Shown: piece by piece, positions 17,900 to 27,327 of the stretch
Numbering within the stretch: the first letter of the stretch is position 1
Layout: every line of letters begins with the position of its first letter
Source: Actinomycetota bacterium
GTDB taxonomy: Bacteria; Actinomycetota; Actinomycetes; Actinomycetales; Microbacteriaceae
Assembly (NCBI GenBank): GCA_051751085.1
Contig: JBNJKM010000001.1
Span: 135,314 to 199,313, forward strand
Reading direction: 5' to 3'
DNA length: 64,000 bases
Position numbers and translations under genes: made by a program
The notes under the pieces: model-generated
The model's database searches: none
Seen by the model: the letters and a program-made list of their open reading frames with translations, nothing else
Told to the model about the DNA's origin: nothing

Positions 17900-19102
17900 T
17901 CAGCGCGGCAGCTCGACCGGCGCCGTCTCGGGCGGCTCGCCGATGCCGTAGCGGAGGTCGGGCTGGTGCCGGCGGAAGATCGCCGCGATCGCCGCGGCGA
18001 TGGCCACCATCACGACCGCGACCCAGACGGCGCCCACGCCGCCGATCGCGTCGATCGCGATGCCCGCGACCGCCGAGCCGACGGCGGCGCCCAGCAGCTG
18101 GCCGGTGCCGATCCACGCGTAGGCCTCGGGGGTGTCGGCGAACTTCACCGTGGCGGCGATGATGGCGGAGAACGCCGCGAGCGCCGGCGCCGTGCCGAGG
18201 CCGGCGACGAAGAGCGCGATCGAGAGGCCGACGACCTCGCTCATCGGCAGCGCGATGGCCATGCCCGCGAGCACGATCGCGAGCCGGATCGCGAGCGACC
18301 ACGGGGTGATGGGGCGGCCGCCGAGCGCGAAGCCGCCGATGAGCGAGCCCATCGCAGAGACCCCGAGCACGATGCCGGCCTCGAGCGCGCCCTCGCCGAA
18401 GGTGGCGACGACGCCGGCCTCGACGGCCGAGAAGCCGCCGATGAACATCGCCGAGATGACGACCGAGAGCAGCACCGGGGGCTTGCGCAGCACGCGGCCG
18501 AGCTTGCGCGTGGTGGGCGGGATCCGCAGGCGGCGCACCTCGGGCGAGATGATGAAGAACGCGGCGCCGACCGCCTGGATCACCATCACGACGAAGAGCG
18601 TCGGGCCGGTGCCGAACCCGGAGACGAGCACCACGAGGAGCACCGGGCCGAAGACCCAGATGATCTCCTGCAGCGCCGCGTCGAAGGAGAACAGCGGTGA
18701 CAGCAGGCGCTGCGGCACCATGCGCGGGTAGAGCGTGCGGACGGTGGGGGTGATGGGCGGCATCGCGGCGCCCGCGATCGCGCCGGCCAGCACATCCGCC
18801 CAGAGCGGCAGGCTGAGCGTCGAGATGGAGAAGAGCGCGCCCACCGAGACGACGGTCGTCGTGACGAGCACGGTGACCGTGCCGAAGCGGGCCATGAGCC
18901 GCGTGACGAACGGGCCCGCGACGGCCATGCCGATCGAGAAGGCGGCGAGCACGATGCCGGCCGCCGTGTAGTTGCCGTGCTCGTGCTCCATGTGCATGAG
19001 CAGCCCGAGCGAGTACATGCCAGCGGGGAAGCGGCCGATGAGTTGCGCGAGGATGATGCGCGCGAGTCCCGGAACCCTCAGCACCTCGGCATACACACGC
19101 AC
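17900..19102 (-). CDS. MFS transporter
   Basis: About 12 hydrophobic segments; TAGGCT 6 nt upstream of GTG at 19102. Confidence 0.85.
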   Translation of the reverse strand: MRVYAEVLRVPGLARIILAQLIGRFPAGMYSLGLLMHMEHEHGNYTAAGIVLAAFSIGMAVAGPFVTRLMARFGTVTVLVTTTVVSVGALFSISTLSLPLWADVLAGAIAGAAMPPITPTVRTLYPRMVPQRLLSPLFSFDAALQEIIWVFGPVLLVVLVSGFGTGPTLFVVMVIQAVGAAFFIISPEVRRLRIPPTTRKLGRVLRKPPVLLSVVISAMFIGGFSAVEAGVVATFGEGALEAGIVLGVSAMGSLIGGFALGGRPITPWSLAIRLAIVLAGMAIALPMSEVVGLSIALFVAGLGTAPALAAFSAIIAATVKFADTPEAYAWIGTGQLLGAAVGSAVAGIAIDAIGGVGAVWVAVVMVAIAAAIAAIFRRHQPDLRYGIGEPPETAPVELPR

Positions 19103-19214
19103 CAGCACAGCCTAGGGGCGCGGGTGTCGAGCCTTCGGGCAGAATGGCGTGTGTCCGCGGCGTCGCCCGGCGAGCGTGCGCTGACGCGGCAGCAGCGGAC
19201 AGGAGAGGCACATC

Positions 19215-20222
19215 GTGACGGAGACCACTGGCAACGAGCCGACCGGCACCGCGCCCGACCGCAGCGGCCCCGTCGGCCCGGTCGACGCATCCGTCGTGCC
19301 CCGCTACGCGGGCATCGCGACCTTCGCGCGGCTGCCGCGCATCGAGGACGTGCCGCGCGCCGACGTCGCCGTCGTGGGCGTGCCGTTCGACACGGGCGTC
19401 AGCTACCGGCCGGGCACGCGCTTCGGGCCGTCGCACGTGCGCGAGTCGTCGCGGCTGCTGCGGCCGTACAACCCCGCGCAGGACGTGTCGCCGTTCGCGG
19501 TCGCGCAGGTCGTCGACGCGGGCGACTTCCCCGTGAACCCGTTCGACATCCAGGAGGCGGTGCTCGAGGTCGAGCGCGCCGCGACCGAGCTCGGCGAGCG
19601 GGCGACGCGGATCGTGACGATCGGCGGCGACCACACGATCGCGCTGCCGCTGCTGCGCGCGGTCGCGAAGCAGCACGGGCCGGTCGCGGTGCTGCACTTC
19701 GACGCGCACCTCGACACCTGGGACACCTACTTCGGTGCGCCCGTCACGCACGGCACGCCCTTCCGGCGCGCGAGCGAGGAGGGGCTCATCGACCTCACCG
19801 CGAGCTGCCACGTGGGCACGCGCGGGCCGCTGTACTCGAAGCAGGACCTCGAGGACGACGAGCGGCTCGGCTTCTCGATCGTCTCGAGCGAGTACGTCGA
19901 GGAGCGCGGCGCCGAGGCGGCGATCCAGCGGATGCGCGACCGCATCGGCGACAAGCCGCTCTACATCTCGGTCGACATCGACGTGCTCGACCCCGCGCAC
20001 GCGCCCGGCACGGGCACGCCTGAAGCTGGTGGGCTGACGAGCCGCGAGCTGCTGCGGATGCTGCGGAGCCTGGGCGACAAGCACATCGTGGGCGCCGACG
20101 TCGTCGAGGTGTCGCCCGCGTACGACCACGCGCAGATGACCGGCATCGCTGCGAGCCACGTCGTCTACGAGCTCGTGACGCTGCTGGCGGCGCAGGCGGG
20201 GCGGATGCGCGAGGCCGAGTAG
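19215..20222 (+). CDS. speB: Agmatinase / guanidinobutyrase (ureohydrolase)
   Basis: GGDHT, HFDAHLD, SHGT-like [21 protein letters not shown]; exact substrate cannot be told from sequence. Confidence 0.88.
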
Positions 20223-20262
20223 CCCTCCTCCGCTGATCGAGCCGCACGCGTCGACCCGCCGC

Positions 20263-20453
20263 TGGTCGAGCCGCACGCGCCGCAGGCGCGCGCGAGTCGA
20301 GACCACGCCGGTGGTCGAGCCGCACGCGCCGCAGGCGCGCGCGAGTCGAGACCACGCCGCTGGTCGAGCCGCACGCGCCGCAGGCGCGCGCGAGTCGAGA
20401 CCACGCCGCTGGTCGAGCCGCACGCGCCGCAGGCGCGCGCGAGTCGAGACCAC
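20263..20453. repeat. Tandem array of four 49-bp REP family 1 units
   Basis: Unit TGGTCGAGCCGCACGCGCCGCAGGCGCGCGCGAGTCGAGACCACGCCGC at 20263, 20312, 20361 and 20410; partial copy at about 20230-20250. Confidence 0.95.
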
Positions 20454-20485
20454 TCGCCGACGGCCGCACTCCCGACGGCGTCACC

Positions 20486-21595
20486 TCAGACGGCGACCTC
20501 CACCGAGACCGACAACACCTGCCCGCGGAAGGCGGCGACCCGCGCGACCTGCTCCTCGAGCGCGGTCGTCGGCGGCGTGCCGGCCTCGGCGAACCACGAG
20601 ACGGCGAGAGCGTCGCGGCTCATGCGCCACGTGCCGGCGACCACGCCACCCGCGACGACGAGGTTCGCGCCGTTCGAGACGAGCGAGCGCCGCGCGGGCG
20701 GCACGACTCGCGAGTCGGCCGTGCCCGGGCCCAGCACCCACGGGTCGAACGCGGGCAGCAGCACCACGGCATCCGACGGCTCGGCGGCCTCGAGCTCGGC
20801 GACGTCGGCGGTCCGCAGGAGCAGCTCCTCACCATCCACCTCGACGGTCGCCACCTCGCCGCCGAGATCGCGCAGCCACCCCTCGAGGCGCCGGCGCGGC
20901 ACGCCGAGCCCCTCCGTCAGCCAGTAGCCGAGGTTGGCCGCGGTCGCCGGACCGTACGCCTCGAGGTAGAGGAGGCACGCGCGCCGACCCGCCTCGTCGA
21001 GTTCCGGCAGGCCTGGCCAGCGAGGGTCGCCCTCGAGCAGTCGGAACGTCGACTGCCCGTCGCGTGCCGGCCCGAAGCAGATGTCGCCCCACCAGTGCAG
21101 CGGCTTGAAGAGCGCATCGGCGCCGCTGCCGGAGGTCGCGGCCTCGGCGAGGTGCCGCAGCGCGGGGATGCGCGCGAGGTGCGCGCCCACCTCCGATCGC
21201 GTCATCGGGCCGGTGCGCAGCGCATCCCGCACGGCATCGCGCAGCGGCGCCCAGTCGTCGATGGCGAAGCCGCCCTGCCGCTGCCAGCGAGCCGTCTCCC
21301 AGACGCGCGTCGCGGTGCGCGCGGCGAGCAGCACGGAGGCCGCGTCGTGCGTGAAGACGTACGAGCCGCCGCGGAACGCGTAGCTGCGCACCAGCTCGCC
21401 GTCGTCGAGCGCTCGCTCGAGGGCGCCCGGCCGCGGGTCGGTCTGCCGCATGGCGACGGAGAGCTCCGCCGACTCCATGAGCCAGCCGCGCACCGCGACG
21501 ACGCGGCGGATGGTGTCGGTCGCGTCGGCGGGCAGGGCAGGGTCGAGGCCGTGGCGGCGCAGCCGCCAGCCGAGCGCCTGCGCTCCGTCGATCAC
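20486..21595 (-). CDS. Winged-helix HTH_42 (AlkZ/YcaQ-like) DNA glycosylase family protein, divergent
   Basis: Overall layout, YL.AYGPAT...L.YW, LLPAFDPWVLG, GGVVAGTW; the catalytic QxQ position reads RGW. Confidence 0.75.
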   Translation of the reverse strand: MIDGAQALGWRLRRHGLDPALPADATDTIRRVVAVRGWLMESAELSVAMRQTDPRPGALERALDDGELVRSYAFRGGSYVFTHDAASVLLAARTATRVWETARWQRQGGFAIDDWAPLRDAVRDALRTGPMTRSEVGAHLARIPALRHLAEAATSGSGADALFKPLHWWGDICFGPARDGQSTFRLLEGDPRWPGLPELDEAGRRACLLYLEAYGPATAANLGYWLTEGLGVPRRRLEGWLRDLGGEVATVEVDGEELLLRTADVAELEAAEPSDAVVLLPAFDPWVLGPGTADSRVVPPARRSLVSNGANLVVAGGVVAGTWRMSRDALAVSWFAEAGTPPTTALEEQVARVAAFRGQVLSVSVEVAV

Positions 21596-21659
21596 GCGCT
21601 CACGGTAGCGGTGGGCTCCGACGATCGGTGCGCCTGGTGCGCTGCGACCTGGTGCGCTC

Positions 21660-21995
21660 CTACTCGGCGCGCGGCGCCTTGATCATCACGGCCGCCACGA
21701 GCGCGACGAGCGCCGCCGCGAGGTGCGCGAGGAGCCACGGCTGACTGGCGAGGTCGAAGGGCAGCACCGGGTTCCAGATGACCGCGATCGCGAGGAACAC
21801 CGGGATCCACCACCAGTGCTTCGCCTGGAACGCGAACCACGCGACGATCACCGCGAGCACGGCGATCACGAAGCGCAGCGTGTCGTACCACTCGGTGCCC
21901 ATGAGCATCGTGCCGACCACGAGCGCGATCGCGACGAGCACGCCGGGGGCGAGCGCGTTGCGCTGGAACGTGGGGCCGTAGCGGTTGCTCTCCAT
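21660..21995 (-). CDS. Small membrane protein (DUF6804-like)
   Basis: Four hydrophobic segments, IAVIWNPVLP. Confidence 0.6.
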   Translation of the reverse strand: MESNRYGPTFQRNALAPGVLVAIALVVGTMLMGTEWYDTLRFVIAVLAVIVAWFAFQAKHWWWIPVFLAIAVIWNPVLPFDLASQPWLLAHLAAALVALVAAVMIKAPRAE

Positions 21996-22032: not shown

Positions 22033-22121
22033 CTGATCGAGCAGCAGCCGCAGGCCGCGTATCGAGATCCGGTGCGCCGGCGTCGTCTCGATACGCGCGC
22101 TTCGCGTGCTCCTCGACGAGC
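22033..22121. repeat. Inverted pair of REP family 1 elements
   Basis: TGATCGAGCAGC...CGTATCGAGATC followed by GTCGTCTCGATACGCG...CTCCTCGACGAGCG. Confidence 0.8.
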
Positions 22122-22135
22122 GGGGGGCGGGGCGC

Positions 22136-25100
22136 TCAGGCGGCGAGCGCCTTCTTCACCCGCTGCAGGCTGACCGGCCCGGAGGTGCCGAGCTGCTGCG
22201 CGAAGAGGCTGACCCGCAGCTCCTCGAGCAGCCAGCGGGCGGTGATGAGCCGCTCGGCCTTCGGCCATCCGTCGGTGCCCGGGACGGCATCCGTCACCGC
22301 TCGCGCGAGCGGCAGCGTGCCGCCCGCCTCGGTGAAGAGCGCGGTCGCCTGCTCGACCTCGGTCATCCAGATGCGGTCGCGGTGCGCGGTCTCGGGGAGG
22401 CGCTTGACGCGGTGCTCGATCGCGCGCACGTAGACCTCGAGCCGCCCGAGCCTGGCGAGGCCCGTGCGGCTGACGAAGCCGTCGAAGACGAGCTGGTCGA
22501 GGTGCGCGCGGGCGTCGGCGAGCGCGGCCATGTGCGCGAGGCTCGCGCCGTCGCGGATCGCGCGGTCGGCGAGCCGGGCGGAGGTGAGGATGCGCGCCAC
22601 CTGCGAGGCGAGCGCGAACAGCCGGTCGACGAGGCCGTCGGCGACGCGGGCCCGCAGCGCCTCGAAGTCGGCGACCGTCGCGGGCGGCGCGGTGCCGAGC
22701 TCGGCGTCGATGATCGCGAGCATGAGGTCGTCGAAGAGGCGGTCGGTCGACGGGTAGGGGCTCGCGCCGAGCGCGAGCTTCTCGGCCGCTGTGAGGTTCG
22801 ACTGCACGTAGGGCCCGGGGCTCGGCACCTGCCGCAGCAGCAGCTGCCGCACCGCCGCGCGCTGGTCGCGCTGCTGCGCCTCGCGCGTCGACGCGAGCCG
22901 GATGCTGACCGTCGCCTTCCCGCCCTTGCCCGCGCTCGTGATCGCGTAGCCCGGGTAGGCCCGCACCGTGTTGCCGCCCTGCCGCACGTCGATGTGCTCG
23001 GGCAGCTCGACGTCGAAGCCCGTCACCTCGTCGCGCTCCAGGTCGCTCGTCACCTTGACCGCGGCCTTCGCGACCTGCGCGGTCGCCTGCTGGCCGAAGC
23101 GACGCTTGAGCGCCTCGAGGTCCTTGTCGGCCCCGAGTCGGCGGCCGCGGCCGTCCTCGACGGCGAAGGTGGGCTTGAGGTGCTCGGGGATGCGGTGCCA
23201 GTCGACATCGCTCGCGGCCGCCTGCACGTAGGCGGTGCGGGAGATGCGCGCGGCCAGCACCTCTGCGATGGAGGCGGGCCGGTCGCTGCCCTTGCCGGCC
23301 GCGGCGGGCTCGGACGGCAGGTCGGCGAGCATGCCGCGCGCCCAGTCGGCTGCCGGGACGACGTGCTTGCGCACGTGCTTCGGCAGGCTCTTGATCATCG
23401 CGGTCAGCAGCTCCTCCCGCATGCCGGGCACGAGCCAGTCGAAGCCCTCCGGCGTAATGCGCGGCAGCACCGCGAGCGGCACGTGCACGGTGACGCCGTC
23501 GTCCGTGGCGCCCGGCTCGAACCGGTAGCTGAGCCGCAGCCGCTGCTCGCCCTGCTGCCACTTCGTCGGGAACGCCTCCTGGTCGACGCGGGCGTCCTCG
23601 CCGGTGAGGTCCTCGCGCGTCATCGTCAGCAGCTCGGGACGGGTCTTCCGCTCCTCGCGCCACCACCCCTCGAAGCTGCGGGTGGAGGCCACGTCGGCGG
23701 GGATGCGCGCGTCGAAGAAGTCGAAGACGGCCTCGTCGCCGACCAGCAGGTCGCGGCGGCGCTGGCGCTCCTCGAGCCGCTCGATCTCGCGGCGCAGCTC
23801 CTTGTTCTTGCGGTCGAAGTCCTGCGGGCTGTCCCACTCGCCGTCGACGAGCGCGTGCCGGATGAACAGCTCGCGCGCGTGCTCGGGGTCGATGCGCGAG
23901 AACTGCACGCGCCGCCGCTCGACGATCGTGACGCCGAAGAGCGTCACCTTCTCGAAGGCGACGACGGCGCCCTGCTTGCGCTCCCAGTGGGGCTCCGAGA
24001 CCTGGCGCTTCGCGAGGTCGCCCGCGAGCGGCTCGGCCCACGCGAGGTCGATGGATGCGACGTTGCGGGCGAAGAGCCGGCTCGTCTCGACGAGCTCGGC
24101 GGCCATCACGGAGCGCGGCGGCTTCTTGGCGAGGGCCGAACCGGGGAAGATCTGGAACCGCGCGCCACGCGCGCCGAGGTACTCGGGCCGCACGCGCATC
24201 CGCCGCTTGTCGCCCTTGTCGCCGGGCCGCGACTGCTGCGGCTTCTGCGTCTCGTCGAGCGTGCCGATGCGGCCGAGGAGGCCGGAGAGGAGCGCCTTGT
24301 GGACGGCGTCGGCGTCGACGGAGGCGGCGAGCGAGCCGGGGGCCCCGTCCGCTGGTCGAGCCGCCTCCTCCGCTGGTCGAGCCGCACGCGCCGCACCGTC
24401 CGCTGGTCGAGCCGCACGCGCCGCAGGCGCGCGCGAGTCGAGACCACTGCTGTCGTCTCGAGACGCGCCTTCGGTGCTCCTCGACGAGCGACGCTCCGGC
24501 TTCAGCCCCATCGCCCGGGTCAGCTGCCGCACGACGTCCTGCCACTCGCGCACGCGCAGGAACGACAGGTGCTCCGCCTTGCACGCCTTCCTGAACTGGT
24601 TGCCCGAGAGCGCCGCCTGCTGCGCCTGCAGGTGCCGCCAGAGCGCGAGCAGCGTGATGAAGTCGCTCGTCGGGTCGGTGAAGCGCGCGTGCGAGCGGTC
24701 GGCCTCCTCGCGCCGCTCGAGCGGACGCTCCCGGGGGTCCTGGATCGTCAGGCCGGCGACGATCGCGATGACCTCGTGGGCGACGTCCGCGTCCCGGCCG
24801 GCCAACGCCATCCGCCCGAACCTCGGGTCGACGGGCAGGCGCGCGAGCTCGCGCCCGATCCTCGTGATGTCGCCCTTCGCCGAGATGGCGCCGAGCTCGC
24901 GCAGCAGGTCGTGGCCGTCCTTGATGCCGCGCGGGTCGGGCGGCTGGAGGAACGGGAACTCCTCGAGCGGACCGAGCCCGAGCGACGCGGCCTGCAGGAT
25001 GACGGCAGCAAGATTCGTGCGGAGGATCTCGGGGTCGGTGAACGCGGGGCGCTTGTCGAAGTCGTCCTCGGCGTAGAGGCGGATCGCGATGCCCGGCGCG

Positions 25101-26155
25101 ACGCGGCCCGCGCGGCCCGAGCGCTGGTTGGCGCTCGCCTGGCTGATCGCCTCGATCGGCAGCCGCTGCACCTTGCTGCGCGCGGAGTAGCGCGAGATGC
25201 GGGCGGTCCCCGTGTCGATGACGTGACGGATGCCCGGCACGGTCAGGCTCGTCTCGGCGACGTTCGTGGCGAGCACGACACGACGACGGATGCCGGGGCG
25301 GCTCGAGCGCTCGAAGACGCGGTGCTGGTCGGCGGCGCTCAGGCGGCCGTAGAGGGGGAGGATCACGGTGGTCGGGCCGAGCTTGCCCTGCAGCTGGTCC
25401 TGCGCGTCGCGGATGTCGGCCTCGCTGGGGAGGAAGACGAGCACGTCGCCTGCGTCGTCGCGGGCGATCTCCTGCAGCGCCGACTCGATGCCGTCGATCG
25501 GGTCGAGGTCGGCGGCGGGCTCGTCCGCACTGCGTCCATCGAGCTCGGCATCGTCGTCCTCATCCATCGCCTCGGAGACGAGCGGGCGGTAGCGGACGTC
25601 GACCGGGAAGGTGCGGCCGGAGACCTCGATGATCGGGGCGCCGCCGAAGTGCCGGCTGAACGACTCGGGATCGATCGTCGCGCTCGTGACGATCACCTTG
25701 AGGTCGGGGCGGCGGGGGAGCAGCCGCTGCAGGTAGCCGACGAGGAAGTCGATCGTGAGGCTGCGCTCGTGCGCCTCGTCGATGATGATCGTGTCGTACT
25801 GCTTGAGGTCGCGATCGCGGTGCATCTCGGCGAGCAGGATGCCGTCGGTCATCACCTTGATCTGCGTCGCCGCCGACACCTGGTCGGTGAAGCGCACCTT
25901 GTAGCCGACGATGCCGCCGAGCTCCTCGCCGAGCTCCTCGGCGATGCGCTCGGCGATCGTGCGGGCGGCGAGCCGGCGCGGCTGCGTGTGGCCGATGCTG
26001 GTGCGGCCGAGCTCGAGGCACATCTTCGGCAGCTGCGTCGTCTTGCCCGAGCCCGTGGCGCCGGCGACGATCACCACCTGGTGGTCCCGGATCGCCGCCA
26101 TGATCTCGTCGCGCGCCGCGCTGACGGGCAGATCAGCCGGGTACTCGATGCGCAT
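22136..26155 (-). CDS. hrpA: ATP-dependent RNA helicase HrpA with an internal REP-derived insertion
   Basis: GATGSGKTTQLPK, DEAHERS, SAT, LATNVAETSLT, QRSGRAGR, C-terminal WLLEELRVSLFAQ; start MRIEYP at 26155. Confidence 0.96.
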   Translation of the reverse strand: MRIEYPADLPVSAARDEIMAAIRDHQVVIVAGATGSGKTTQLPKMCLELGRTSIGHTQPRRLAARTIAERIAEELGEELGGIVGYKVRFTDQVSAATQIKVMTDGILLAEMHRDRDLKQYDTIIIDEAHERSLTIDFLVGYLQRLLPRRPDLKVIVTSATIDPESFSRHFGGAPIIEVSGRTFPVDVRYRPLVSEAMDEDDDAELDGRSADEPAADLDPIDGIESALQEIARDDAGDVLVFLPSEADIRDAQDQLQGKLGPTTVILPLYGRLSAADQHRVFERSSRPGIRRRVVLATNVAETSLTVPGIRHVIDTGTARISRYSARSKVQRLPIEAISQASANQRSGRAGRVAPGIAIRLYAEDDFDKRPAFTDPEILRTNLAAVILQAASLGLGPLEEFPFLQPPDPRGIKDGHDLLRELGAISAKGDITRIGRELARLPVDPRFGRMALAGRDADVAHEVIAIVAGLTIQDPRERPLERREEADRSHARFTDPTSDFITLLALWRHLQAQQAALSGNQFRKACKAEHLSFLRVREWQDVVRQLTRAMGLKPERRSSRSTEGASRDDSSGLDSRAPAARAARPADGAARAARPAEEAARPADGAPGSLAASVDADAVHKALLSGLLGRIGTLDETQKPQQSRPGDKGDKRRMRVRPEYLGARGARFQIFPGSALAKKPPRSVMAAELVETSRLFARNVASIDLAWAEPLAGDLAKRQVSEPHWERKQGAVVAFEKVTLFGVTIVERRRVQFSRIDPEHARELFIRHALVDGEWDSPQDFDRKNKELRREIERLEERQRRRDLLVGDEAVFDFFDARIPADVASTRSFEGWWREERKTRPELLTMTREDLTGEDARVDQEAFPTKWQQGEQRLRLSYRFEPGATDDGVTVHVPLAVLPRITPEGFDWLVPGMREELLTAMIKSLPKHVRKHVVPAADWARGMLADLPSEPAAAGKGSDRPASIAEVLAARISRTAYVQAAASDVDWHRIPEHLKPTFAVEDGRGRRLGADKDLEALKRRFGQQATAQVAKAAVKVTSDLERDEVTGFDVELPEHIDVRQGGNTVRAYPGYAITSAGKGGKATVSIRLASTREAQQRDQRAAVRQLLLRQVPSPGPYVQSNLTAAEKLALGASPYPSTDRLFDDLMLAIIDAELGTAPPATVADFEALRARVADGLVDRLFALASQVARILTSARLADRAIRDGASLAHMAALADARAHLDQLVFDGFVSRTGLARLGRLEVYVRAIEHRVKRLPETAHRDRIWMTEVEQATALFTEAGGTLPLARAVTDAVPGTDGWPKAERLITARWLLEELRVSLFAQQLGTSGPVSLQRVKKALAA
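24349..24490. repeat. REP family 1 cluster inside the hrpA coding sequence
   Basis: 24404-24447 is identical to the first 44 nt of the 49-bp array unit; two truncated copies and an inverted partner adjoin it; reading frame preserved. Confidence 0.93.
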
Positions 26156-26244
26156 CCGACCATTCTCCCGTGCCGGGCTGTGCCTGCGCACCGCGCCCAC
26201 CGCATCCGCCGTCGCCCGTCCCCGTCGCCCCCCCCGCTCTCGAT

Positions 26245-26306
26245 GCGGACCCCAGTTCGGCAGCCGGACCCGCGATCGCGGGTCCGTCTGCCGAACTCGG
26301 GTCCGG
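26245..26306. repeat. 62-bp four-box palindrome (family 2), copy A
   Basis: GCGGACCC-N12-CGGACCC-GCGATCGC-GGGTCCG-N12-GGGTCCGG. Confidence 0.95.
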
Positions 26307-26376
26307 CGGGCGGGAGTCTCCACAGCTCCGCGGATGCAACGGGTCGCGTGGCGCGCGCCCGTGCGACAGTGCCGAC

Positions 26377-27327
26377 ATGGCCGTGGGGAAGCAGCACGAT
26401 GCACCCGCTCTGCATCGGGCGAGGAGCCTCGCCGGCGCCGATGTCGGGGTCCAGCCCGAACGAGAGCCGTCGCTCGCGCGGGTGCGCTACGGCGTCTATG
26501 CCGATGCGGCGGAGCTCGAGGTTGCGAGCCGCGAGGCCTCGTACCTCGCGCTCGTGCGGTCGGTCGCGATCACGCGCGACCAGCCCGTATTCGCGCGTGA
26601 GTCAGCGCTCGCCGTCCACGGCATCCCCTTCGGGCTCGCACCTGATGCCGTGTTCACCATCGGCGACGAGCGCACCGCCAGGAAGAAGGCGGGCGTGATC
26701 CACGCCGTCACGGTGCTCGATCCGATCGACGTCACGACCGTCGGCGAGCTGCTCGTCTGCACGGTGGAGCATGCGCTCGCAGACGTTGCTCGGCGGCGCG
26801 AGGTGGTCGTGGCAGTCGCCGCTCTCGACTGGGCGCTGCGGAATGGGCTCGCCAGCAAGGACGGCGTGCTCGAGGCGCTCGGTCGGCAGGGAAAGCGAGG
26901 GCGGGCCGCCGCGGAGTGGGCGATCGCGTTCGCCGACGCGGCCGCCGAATCGGTCGGTGAGTCCTACAGTCGCGTGCGGCTGCATCAGCTCGGCTTCGCG
27001 ATCCCCGAGCTGCAGGCGCTCGTCGTCGGCAGGAGCGGCAAGGAGTATCGCGTCGATGCGAAGTGGTCGTTCAGCGATCGGCGCCCGCTGTTCGGTGAGT
27101 TCGACGGCATGCAGAAGTACGGCGAGCTTGCGAACCGCGCCGGGAAGTCCGGTGCGGCGGCGCTGGCGCAGGAGAAGGCGCGCGAGGACGACATACGTTT
27201 CCGAGGCGACGTCATGCGCTGGGTCTGGGACGAGATGATCCAGCCACGGCGCTTCGAGCGGCTGCTGCTGGCGCACCGCGTGCCGCGGGTACGCGCTGCG
27301 CTGCCGGAAGCGCTCCTCCGCGGCTGA
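26377..27327 (+). CDS. Orphan AbiEi-like wHTH plus DUF559/Vsr-like putative nuclease domain protein
   Basis: RVRYGVY, ESALAVHG, TVEHALADVAR, AESVGES.SRVRL..LGF.IPELQ, RVD...GEFDG.QKY...EK.RED...RW.W; family assignment from recalled motifs. Confidence 0.75.
   Translation: MAVGKQHDAPALHRARSLAGADVGVQPEREPSLARVRYGVYADAAELEVASREASYLALVRSVAITRDQPVFARESALAVHGIPFGLAPDAVFTIGDERTARKKAGVIHAVTVLDPIDVTTVGELLVCTVEHALADVARRREVVVAVAALDWALRNGLASKDGVLEALGRQGKRGRAAAEWAIAFADAAAESVGESYSRVRLHQLGFAIPELQALVVGRSGKEYRVDAKWSFSDRRPLFGEFDGMQKYGELANRAGKSGAAALAQEKAREDDIRFRGDVMRWVWDEMIQPRRFERLLLAHRVPRVRAALPEALLRG

Follow-up and report, generated by a model that had tools for sequence, protein, structure and literature searches.

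Repetitive extragenic palindromes as a probably translated linker insert in the helicase HrpA of an Agrococcus bacterium

We analyzed a 64,000-nt stretch of DNA (the window; GCA_051751085.1, contig JBNJKM010000001.1, positions 135,314-199,313 of the forward strand) in which hrpA, the gene for the DEAH-box RNA helicase HrpA, contains copies of repetitive extragenic palindromic (REP) elements. All coordinates count from the start of the window unless a contig is named. The source genome, here called G000, is a draft of 2.72 Mb in 22 contigs with a GC content of 72%, and its nearest relatives are Agrococcus species. The features of hrpA and of its insert are:

22136-26404, minus strand: open frame of hrpA, 1422 codons, from its translation
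26155, minus strand: likely start codon of hrpA, an ATG from which the protein reads MRIEYPADLP, from the start codon check
24347-24490, minus strand: REP-derived coding insert of 48 codons, residues 639-686 of protein P0001, RSSRSTEG...AARPAD
24452-24490, minus strand: element in forward orientation relative to hrpA, subtype CTC (sub2), CGCTCG-TCGAGGAGC-ACCGAAGGCG-CGTCTCGAGAC-GAC
24400-24447, plus strand: full REP unit of subtype sub1, reverse relative to hrpA, CCGCTGGTCGAGCCGC-hairpin-GCGAGTCGAGACCAC
24370-24399, plus strand: truncated sub1 5' half-unit of 30 nt, from repeat comparison
24349-24369, plus strand: truncated sub1 5' half-unit of 21 nt, from repeat comparison

HrpA of the source genome has the Pfam domains DEAD, Helicase_C, HA2_N/HA2_C, OB_NTP_bind and DUF3418, and its best match among solved structures is HrpA of E. 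coli (E = 2e-164; PDB chains 9ggr and 6zww). The protein thus contains the RecA1/RecA2 core, the WH/HA2 ratchet, the OB fold and the C-terminal DUF3418 region. The frame is open throughout despite the insert, and the domain set of HrpA is complete. Antisense frames are often open as well in this 72% GC genome.

In the frame of hrpA, the insert reads RSSRSTEGASRDDSSGLDSRAPAARAARPADGAARAARPAEEAARPAD and is flanked by VRQLTRAMGL and DAVHKALL. It is composed of a convergent REP pair and two truncated half-units, and apart from the half-units it has the layout of a typical convergent REP doublet. The forward element encodes RSSRSTEGASRDD, is identical at 39 of 39 positions to an extragenic copy on another contig (C6:148902-148943), and resembles the element at 22085-22116 just beyond the hrpA stop codon; its CTC subtype has six copies in the source genome. 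The full reverse unit encodes GLDSRAPAARAARPA and is identical at 48 of 48 positions to the units of an array that lies 4 kb away. In a 2.7-Mb genome, exact matches of 48 and 39 nt are far beyond what chance would be expected to produce. A first-pass annotation of the window had reported that a 44-nt core of this array recurs at 24404-24447 inside hrpA together with two truncated copies and an inverted partner, in an open frame that adds about 47 residues. All of these pieces were recovered, with the core match extending over 24400-24447 and the added peptide coming to about 48 residues.

The array and a second REP locus are found close to the 3' end of hrpA:

20224-20452, plus strand: intergenic sub1 array, consisting of a half-unit lead (20224-20256) and four 49-nt units (20257-20452)
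22037-22116, no strand assigned: convergent REP pair of subtype TA/GTAG just past the hrpA stop codon, an ordinary extragenic position

On either side of the array, an arginase-family gene (19215-20222, plus strand) and an AlkZ-like gene (20486-21595, minus strand) end in convergent orientation. Its similarity to the insert extends beyond the unit: hrpA positions 24364-24447 match the left edge of the array (20224-20306) at 79 of 84 positions (94%) with one 1-nt indel. Because this 84-nt tract includes the idiosyncratic edge of a half-unit, it points to the copying of a stretch of DNA. The 21-nt and 30-nt half-units differ from each other and from the lead of the array by substitutions and a 1-nt indel, and half-unit leads are also present at extragenic copies, for instance at the C6 copy.

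In a box-plus-hairpin search of the source genome, about 105 elements were found in 68 clusters, almost all of them intergenic. The elements share TCGAG...TCGAGAC boxes around a GC hairpin, with stems that vary among copies through compensatory changes, and fall into two subtypes:

sub1, about 50-70 copies in the source genome: GGTCGAGCCGC-GC hairpin-GCGAGTCGAGACC
sub2, about 30 copies in the source genome: TCGAG(G/T/C)AGC-hairpin-GCGT(A/C)TCGAGAC

Convergent plus/minus pairs about 20 nt apart and tandem arrays are the common arrangements. Thus, the family consists of GC-rich hairpin units that occur as inverted doublets or arrays, mostly at the 3' ends of genes, as is characteristic of REPs. 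The units are 30-49 nt long, and their end boxes are direct rather than inverted (GTCGAG...GTCGAGAC). No terminal inverted repeats of 15-30 bp, as found in miniature inverted-repeat transposable elements, were seen on the elements; orthologs with an empty site are too diverged at the linker to be aligned base by base. The sub2-type pattern was restricted to the GTDB family that holds Agrococcus; elsewhere in the order, every sampled genome gave 0-1 matches. The REP-associated tyrosine transposase (RAYT; Y1 transposase, PF01797) had no match in G000 and none in 30 of the 31 Agrococcus genomes, and it was detected in control genomes. On this basis, a RAYT was rejected as the mobilizer of these elements.

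In HrpA, the insert follows the ratchet/HA2 domain and precedes the OB domain. The alignment with E. coli HrpA breaks off at residue 604 of the latter and resumes at residue 641. These anchors, separated by 37 residues in E. coli, are 108 residues apart in the protein of the source genome, in line with the first-pass annotation, which described the E. coli linker as much shorter. To place the insert relative to the fold, a 767-residue segment of HrpA was modelled with AlphaFold2 from an alignment of 52 sequences (mean predicted local distance difference test score, pLDDT, 77). In this model, residues 374-422, which correspond to the insert, have a pLDDT below 50 and no secondary structure, and they are bracketed by confident helices at 347-363 and at 430-438, the latter preceding the OB fold. 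The insert is thus predicted to form a disordered loop that is compatible with the fold. Its peptide is rich in Arg, Ala, Ser and Pro, with 96% disorder-promoting and 2% hydrophobic residues. A coincidentally REP-like linker of low complexity is ruled out by the exact 48-nt and 39-nt identities together with the matching of subtypes genome by genome described below.

At the level of RNA, it had been suggested that a strong hairpin in the mRNA might affect translation or decay. The 191-nt mRNA region folds at -109 kcal/mol, and dinucleotide-shuffled sequences fold at a mean of -104 kcal/mol (z = -1.0). In other words, the predicted stability is no higher than composition predicts, and the hairpin was rejected.

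To follow the history of the site, the conserved flanks of the linker were anchored by tblastn in 30 relatives, the linkers were read from VRQL to HKALL, named records were added, and a tree was built from the flanks. In a crown clade of 20 Agrococcus species (support 98/95), the linker is 57-125 aa long, and recognizable REP pairs are present in 18 of the 20. Linkers of 35-46 aa without REPs are found in the basal Agrococcus lineages (G012/G013, including A. versicolor, and G004/G018), and most other genera of the family have linkers of 30-38 aa. Basal Agrococcus, other families and E. coli lack the insert. Within the crown clade, the common layout has a short spacer that separates a forward from a reverse element. 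The three codon phases all occur (RSSSS..., VEER..., GRRVG...), and tandem duplication of half-units is frequent; for example, a 24-nt unit is present four times in A. sediminis, and a 36-nt unit four times in A. baldri and in A. sp. DT81.2. A. citreus, which is 93% identical over the segment, shares the 46-nt reverse sub1 element, identical in sequence and position, together with a different forward element in another codon phase and no half-units; G014 has a single 18-nt half-unit.

When four REP subtypes were counted in the 31 genomes by pattern searches, for which reversed-pattern controls gave 0 matches per genome, the subtype resident in hrpA was always one that is present, and often dominant, in the same genome:

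TA/GTAG in hrpA: G008 (108 copies in the genome), G016 (53), G020 (51), G001 (49)
CAC in hrpA: G022 (121 copies), G003 (80), G009 (44), G015 (44)
CTC in hrpA: G010 (49 copies)
sub1 in hrpA: G000 (50 copies), G014 (10)

G004, G013 and G018 have zero REPs of the four types and a short linker. In the same family but in a genus other than Agrococcus, G119 (locus L157) has a 54-aa hrpA linker with an unrelated REP pair at this site, TCGTCGAGCGAGCGGAGCGAGTCGAAAC followed by a reverse partner, and three congeners of G119 have linkers of 30-38 aa. The G119 pair represents an independent colonization of the hrpA site. As judged from the comparison of species, the site in Agrococcus dates to the base of the crown clade and is not specific to one strain, with a content that turns over; what is recent in this lineage is only the present content, namely the pair of half-units and the sub1 unit that matches the neighboring array exactly. 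In this respect, the first-pass annotation, which proposed to date the insertion from sister strains, needs correction: the insert is not the product of a single recent event.

The elements in hrpA follow the reading frame. Same-strand spacings between boxes inside hrpA linkers are multiples of three in 22 of 23 cases; in the intergenic arrays of the source genome, 1 of 13 is (49, 53, 58, 62 nt and so on). Of the possible combinations of element and frame, 643 of 684 (94%) have no stop codon, and as a consequence a REP insert keeps the frame open if its length is divisible by three. The surviving duplications, as multiples of three, show that the frame is under selection, and they indirectly suggest translation of the insert within a functional gene.

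HrpA is not the only protein with such a site. A looser regular-expression census of elements in coding sequence gave mostly false positives in ordinary coding sequence; only three clusters stand. Judged by the periodicity of GC content at third codon positions in their flanks, these three of the 68 clusters are located in frame within genes, and thus the scan for further in-frame copies proposed earlier had a positive outcome. The two additional sites, both outside the window, are:

C2:294893-294993, within C2:294515-295186 (loci L115-L128): interdomain linker of an alpha/beta-hydrolase/acyl-AMP-ligase fusion, encoding VEERATEEHASRDHSPPHAGLDSGAARRATSGSTS
C9:113373-113412 (loci L141-L148): loop of a NERD/UvrD-like helicase, assigned by Pfam, encoding LVEERAPEGGAGLET

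The linker of the fusion protein holds a REP pair in G000 and REP-derived sequence of the genome's own subtype, as pairs, singles or in tandem, in G014, G008, G003, G002, G005, G011, G009, G010, G015 and G001, the last with two REP pairs. It is free of REPs in the basal G013 and G012 and in outgroups. The NERD/UvrD-like helicase is an accessory gene present in only a few species; its loop holds a single element, at the same site, in G000 and G015; in G007 there are two elements and in G008 a decayed copy.

Based on these data, we consider it very likely that the insert in hrpA is a REP doublet of the genome's own family with added half-units, translated as a near-neutral, disordered linker at a heritable site that has been repeatedly remodelled. 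In this model, the site would have been colonized once at the base of the Agrococcus crown clade. Subsequently, the REP subtype populating a given genome would have taken the place of the resident elements, and half-units would have been duplicated. The remodelling may have occurred by homology-driven copying, through gene conversion or template switching, between the REP at the site and those elsewhere in the genome, as suggested by the 84-nt shared tract and the matching of subtypes. Replication slippage would add further change, of which selection would keep only multiples of three. The peptide is probably near-neutral for helicase function because the site is, by prediction, a solvent-exposed, unstructured connector, which would tolerate added peptide. 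In a more general form, which we put forward tentatively and with less than even confidence, flexible linkers of Agrococcus proteins would be heritable “REP slots”, in which a REP doublet serves as a homology landing pad that is repeatedly overwritten by the currently expanding subtype without a RAYT and that lengthens or shortens by slippage in 3-nt steps.

Several observations weigh against the proposal of a near-neutral, remodelled insert. The load of REPs alone does not predict whether the site is occupied, since G012 and G060 carry 80-110 REP copies and yet have a short, REP-free hrpA linker. Two crown species, G024 and G006, have linkers of 59-60 aa without recognizable boxes. The persistence of a long linker in about 20 species could mean that the extra length is useful, and repeated de novo insertion by some enzyme would give a similar pattern. 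Finally, the hrpA-proximal stretches fetched from G014, G001 and G017 contain no orthologous array that would show in which direction sequence was copied. The segment with the arginase-family gene, the array and the AlkZ-like gene was not found in these stretches, although the ortholog of the gene at 17900 is present there. In the window, this segment of about 3 kb (19185-21682) is located between the gene at 17900-19111 and hrpA, and it is a lineage-specific indel adjoining hrpA.

Among the alternative explanations, repeated de novo transposition by a REP-mobilizing enzyme with a preference for this site, instead of conversion of a resident element, would account for the three codon phases, for the different forward elements in close relatives and for the independent REP pair of another type in G119. 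Evidence against it comes from the missing RAYT in 30 of 31 genomes and from elements that have no visible terminal inverted repeats, and the 84-nt tract with its idiosyncratic half-unit edge is more easily explained by copying of a DNA stretch than by insertion of a defined element. We therefore regard de novo transposition as unlikely, but as a serious candidate. A co-opted function, in which the insert or the long linker tunes how far apart the helicase core and the OB/C-terminal part lie or how they move relative to each other, or in which the REPs act at the level of RNA or DNA (e.g. as a site for RNase or gyrase, a pause site or an attenuator within hrpA), draws on the same persistence of the expanded linker, on the two species without boxes, in which the linker has not reverted to about 35 residues, and on reports that REPs elsewhere act as RNA or DNA elements (PMC3733652). 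Yet the peptide is not conserved, with three phases, four subtypes and lengths of 57-125 aa, folding predictions give the RNA no more stability than shuffled sequences, and two unrelated proteins behave alike, which argues for tolerance rather than for a function specific to HrpA. Because sequence, phase and length are all unconserved, we consider co-option improbable.

An assembly artefact, in which a short-read assembly threaded sequence of the array from 4 kb away into hrpA, might be suspected from the identity of the full unit to the nearby array units and from the draft status of the genome. This explanation has to contend with the exactly preserved frame, with half-units that match neither each other nor the lead of the array, and with independently assembled relatives, including closed genomes, in which REP pairs occupy this same codon position; in A. 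citreus, the 46-nt element at this site is identical. Since independent assemblies agree, we consider a mis-assembly highly improbable.

The insertion of REPs into coding sequence is not without precedent. Di Nocera, De Gregorio & Rocco (2013, BMC Genomics 14:522; PMC3733652) described GTAG- and CGTC-tagged REPs that are mostly extragenic, with some inside ORFs (open reading frames). These intragenic REPs occur as singles, dimers and clusters that encode 20-82 aa, are often found in repair genes and in RNA helicases, and were proposed to be neutral owing to their position in flexible linkers; the CGTC REPs have no dedicated transposase (PMC3733652). The Agrococcus TA subtype carries GTAG at its stem (TCGA-GTAG-C), and the CTC and CAC subtypes carry CGTC, reading GCGTC beside the stem. 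Unlike the REPs in that study, sub1 has neither the GTAG nor the CGTC tag, and the Agrococcus elements have direct-repeat boxes around the hairpin. The main text of PMC3733652 includes no actinobacterial family, and the occupancy of one site throughout a genus, with replacement of subtypes across about 30 Agrococcus species, goes beyond it. The arrangement in inverted doublets and arrays, the lineage specificity, the vertical persistence and the presence of several subfamilies per genome are also similar to the system of REP doublets and their transposases (REPIN-RAYT; Bertels & Rainey 2011, PMC3116915; PMC3337134). However, a cognate RAYT/Y1 gene, a defining partner in that system, was not found in 30 of the 31 Agrococcus genomes.

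The first-pass annotation had also drawn a parallel to the Rickettsia palindromic elements (RPEs), and this parallel holds in that an intergenic REP-like family is present in frame in a conserved helicase. RPEs, the classic case, are selfish palindromic repeats that have entered conserved genes without breaking the frame, adding peptide segments where the protein fold allows them (Ogata et al. 2000, Science 290:347, as summarized in PMC10969869). They are about 100-150 bp long, with a conserved peptide and a preferred frame, and dozens of them are in ORFs of a reduced, AT-rich intracellular genome. By contrast, the Agrococcus elements are 30-49 nt long and GC-rich, occur in all three phases, are in coding sequence in about 3 of 68 clusters, and belong to a free-living actinobacterium. 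A literature search on REPs or REPINs in Agrococcus or actinobacteria returned nothing relevant.

In-frame intragenic insertion of the REP/RPE type is thus an already described phenomenon, and hrpA of Agrococcus is a further example, in Actinobacteria. Our findings add a free-living, high-GC actinobacterium, and a REP family without a RAYT, to the known range of translated REP insertions. Their added value is a genus-wide series of site persistence, subtype turnover and RAYT absence rather than a new principle. In this series of about 30 sequenced species, subtype, phase and copy number change while the frame is kept, and within Agrococcus it becomes possible to address whether REPs spread by conversion or transposition and how much arbitrary sequence a helicase linker tolerates. 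If the proposal of REP slots is true, such a slot would be a recorder of REP family turnover and a generator of variation in linker length in HrpA and in at least two other proteins.

For annotation, the REP origin accounts for Arg/Ala/Ser-rich stretches of low complexity in Agrococcus HrpA and in other proteins. Upstream of hrpA, the window also contains a palindrome of a different repeat family (26246-26305), with 34-nt arms that are 94% complementary and with CGGACCC boxes.

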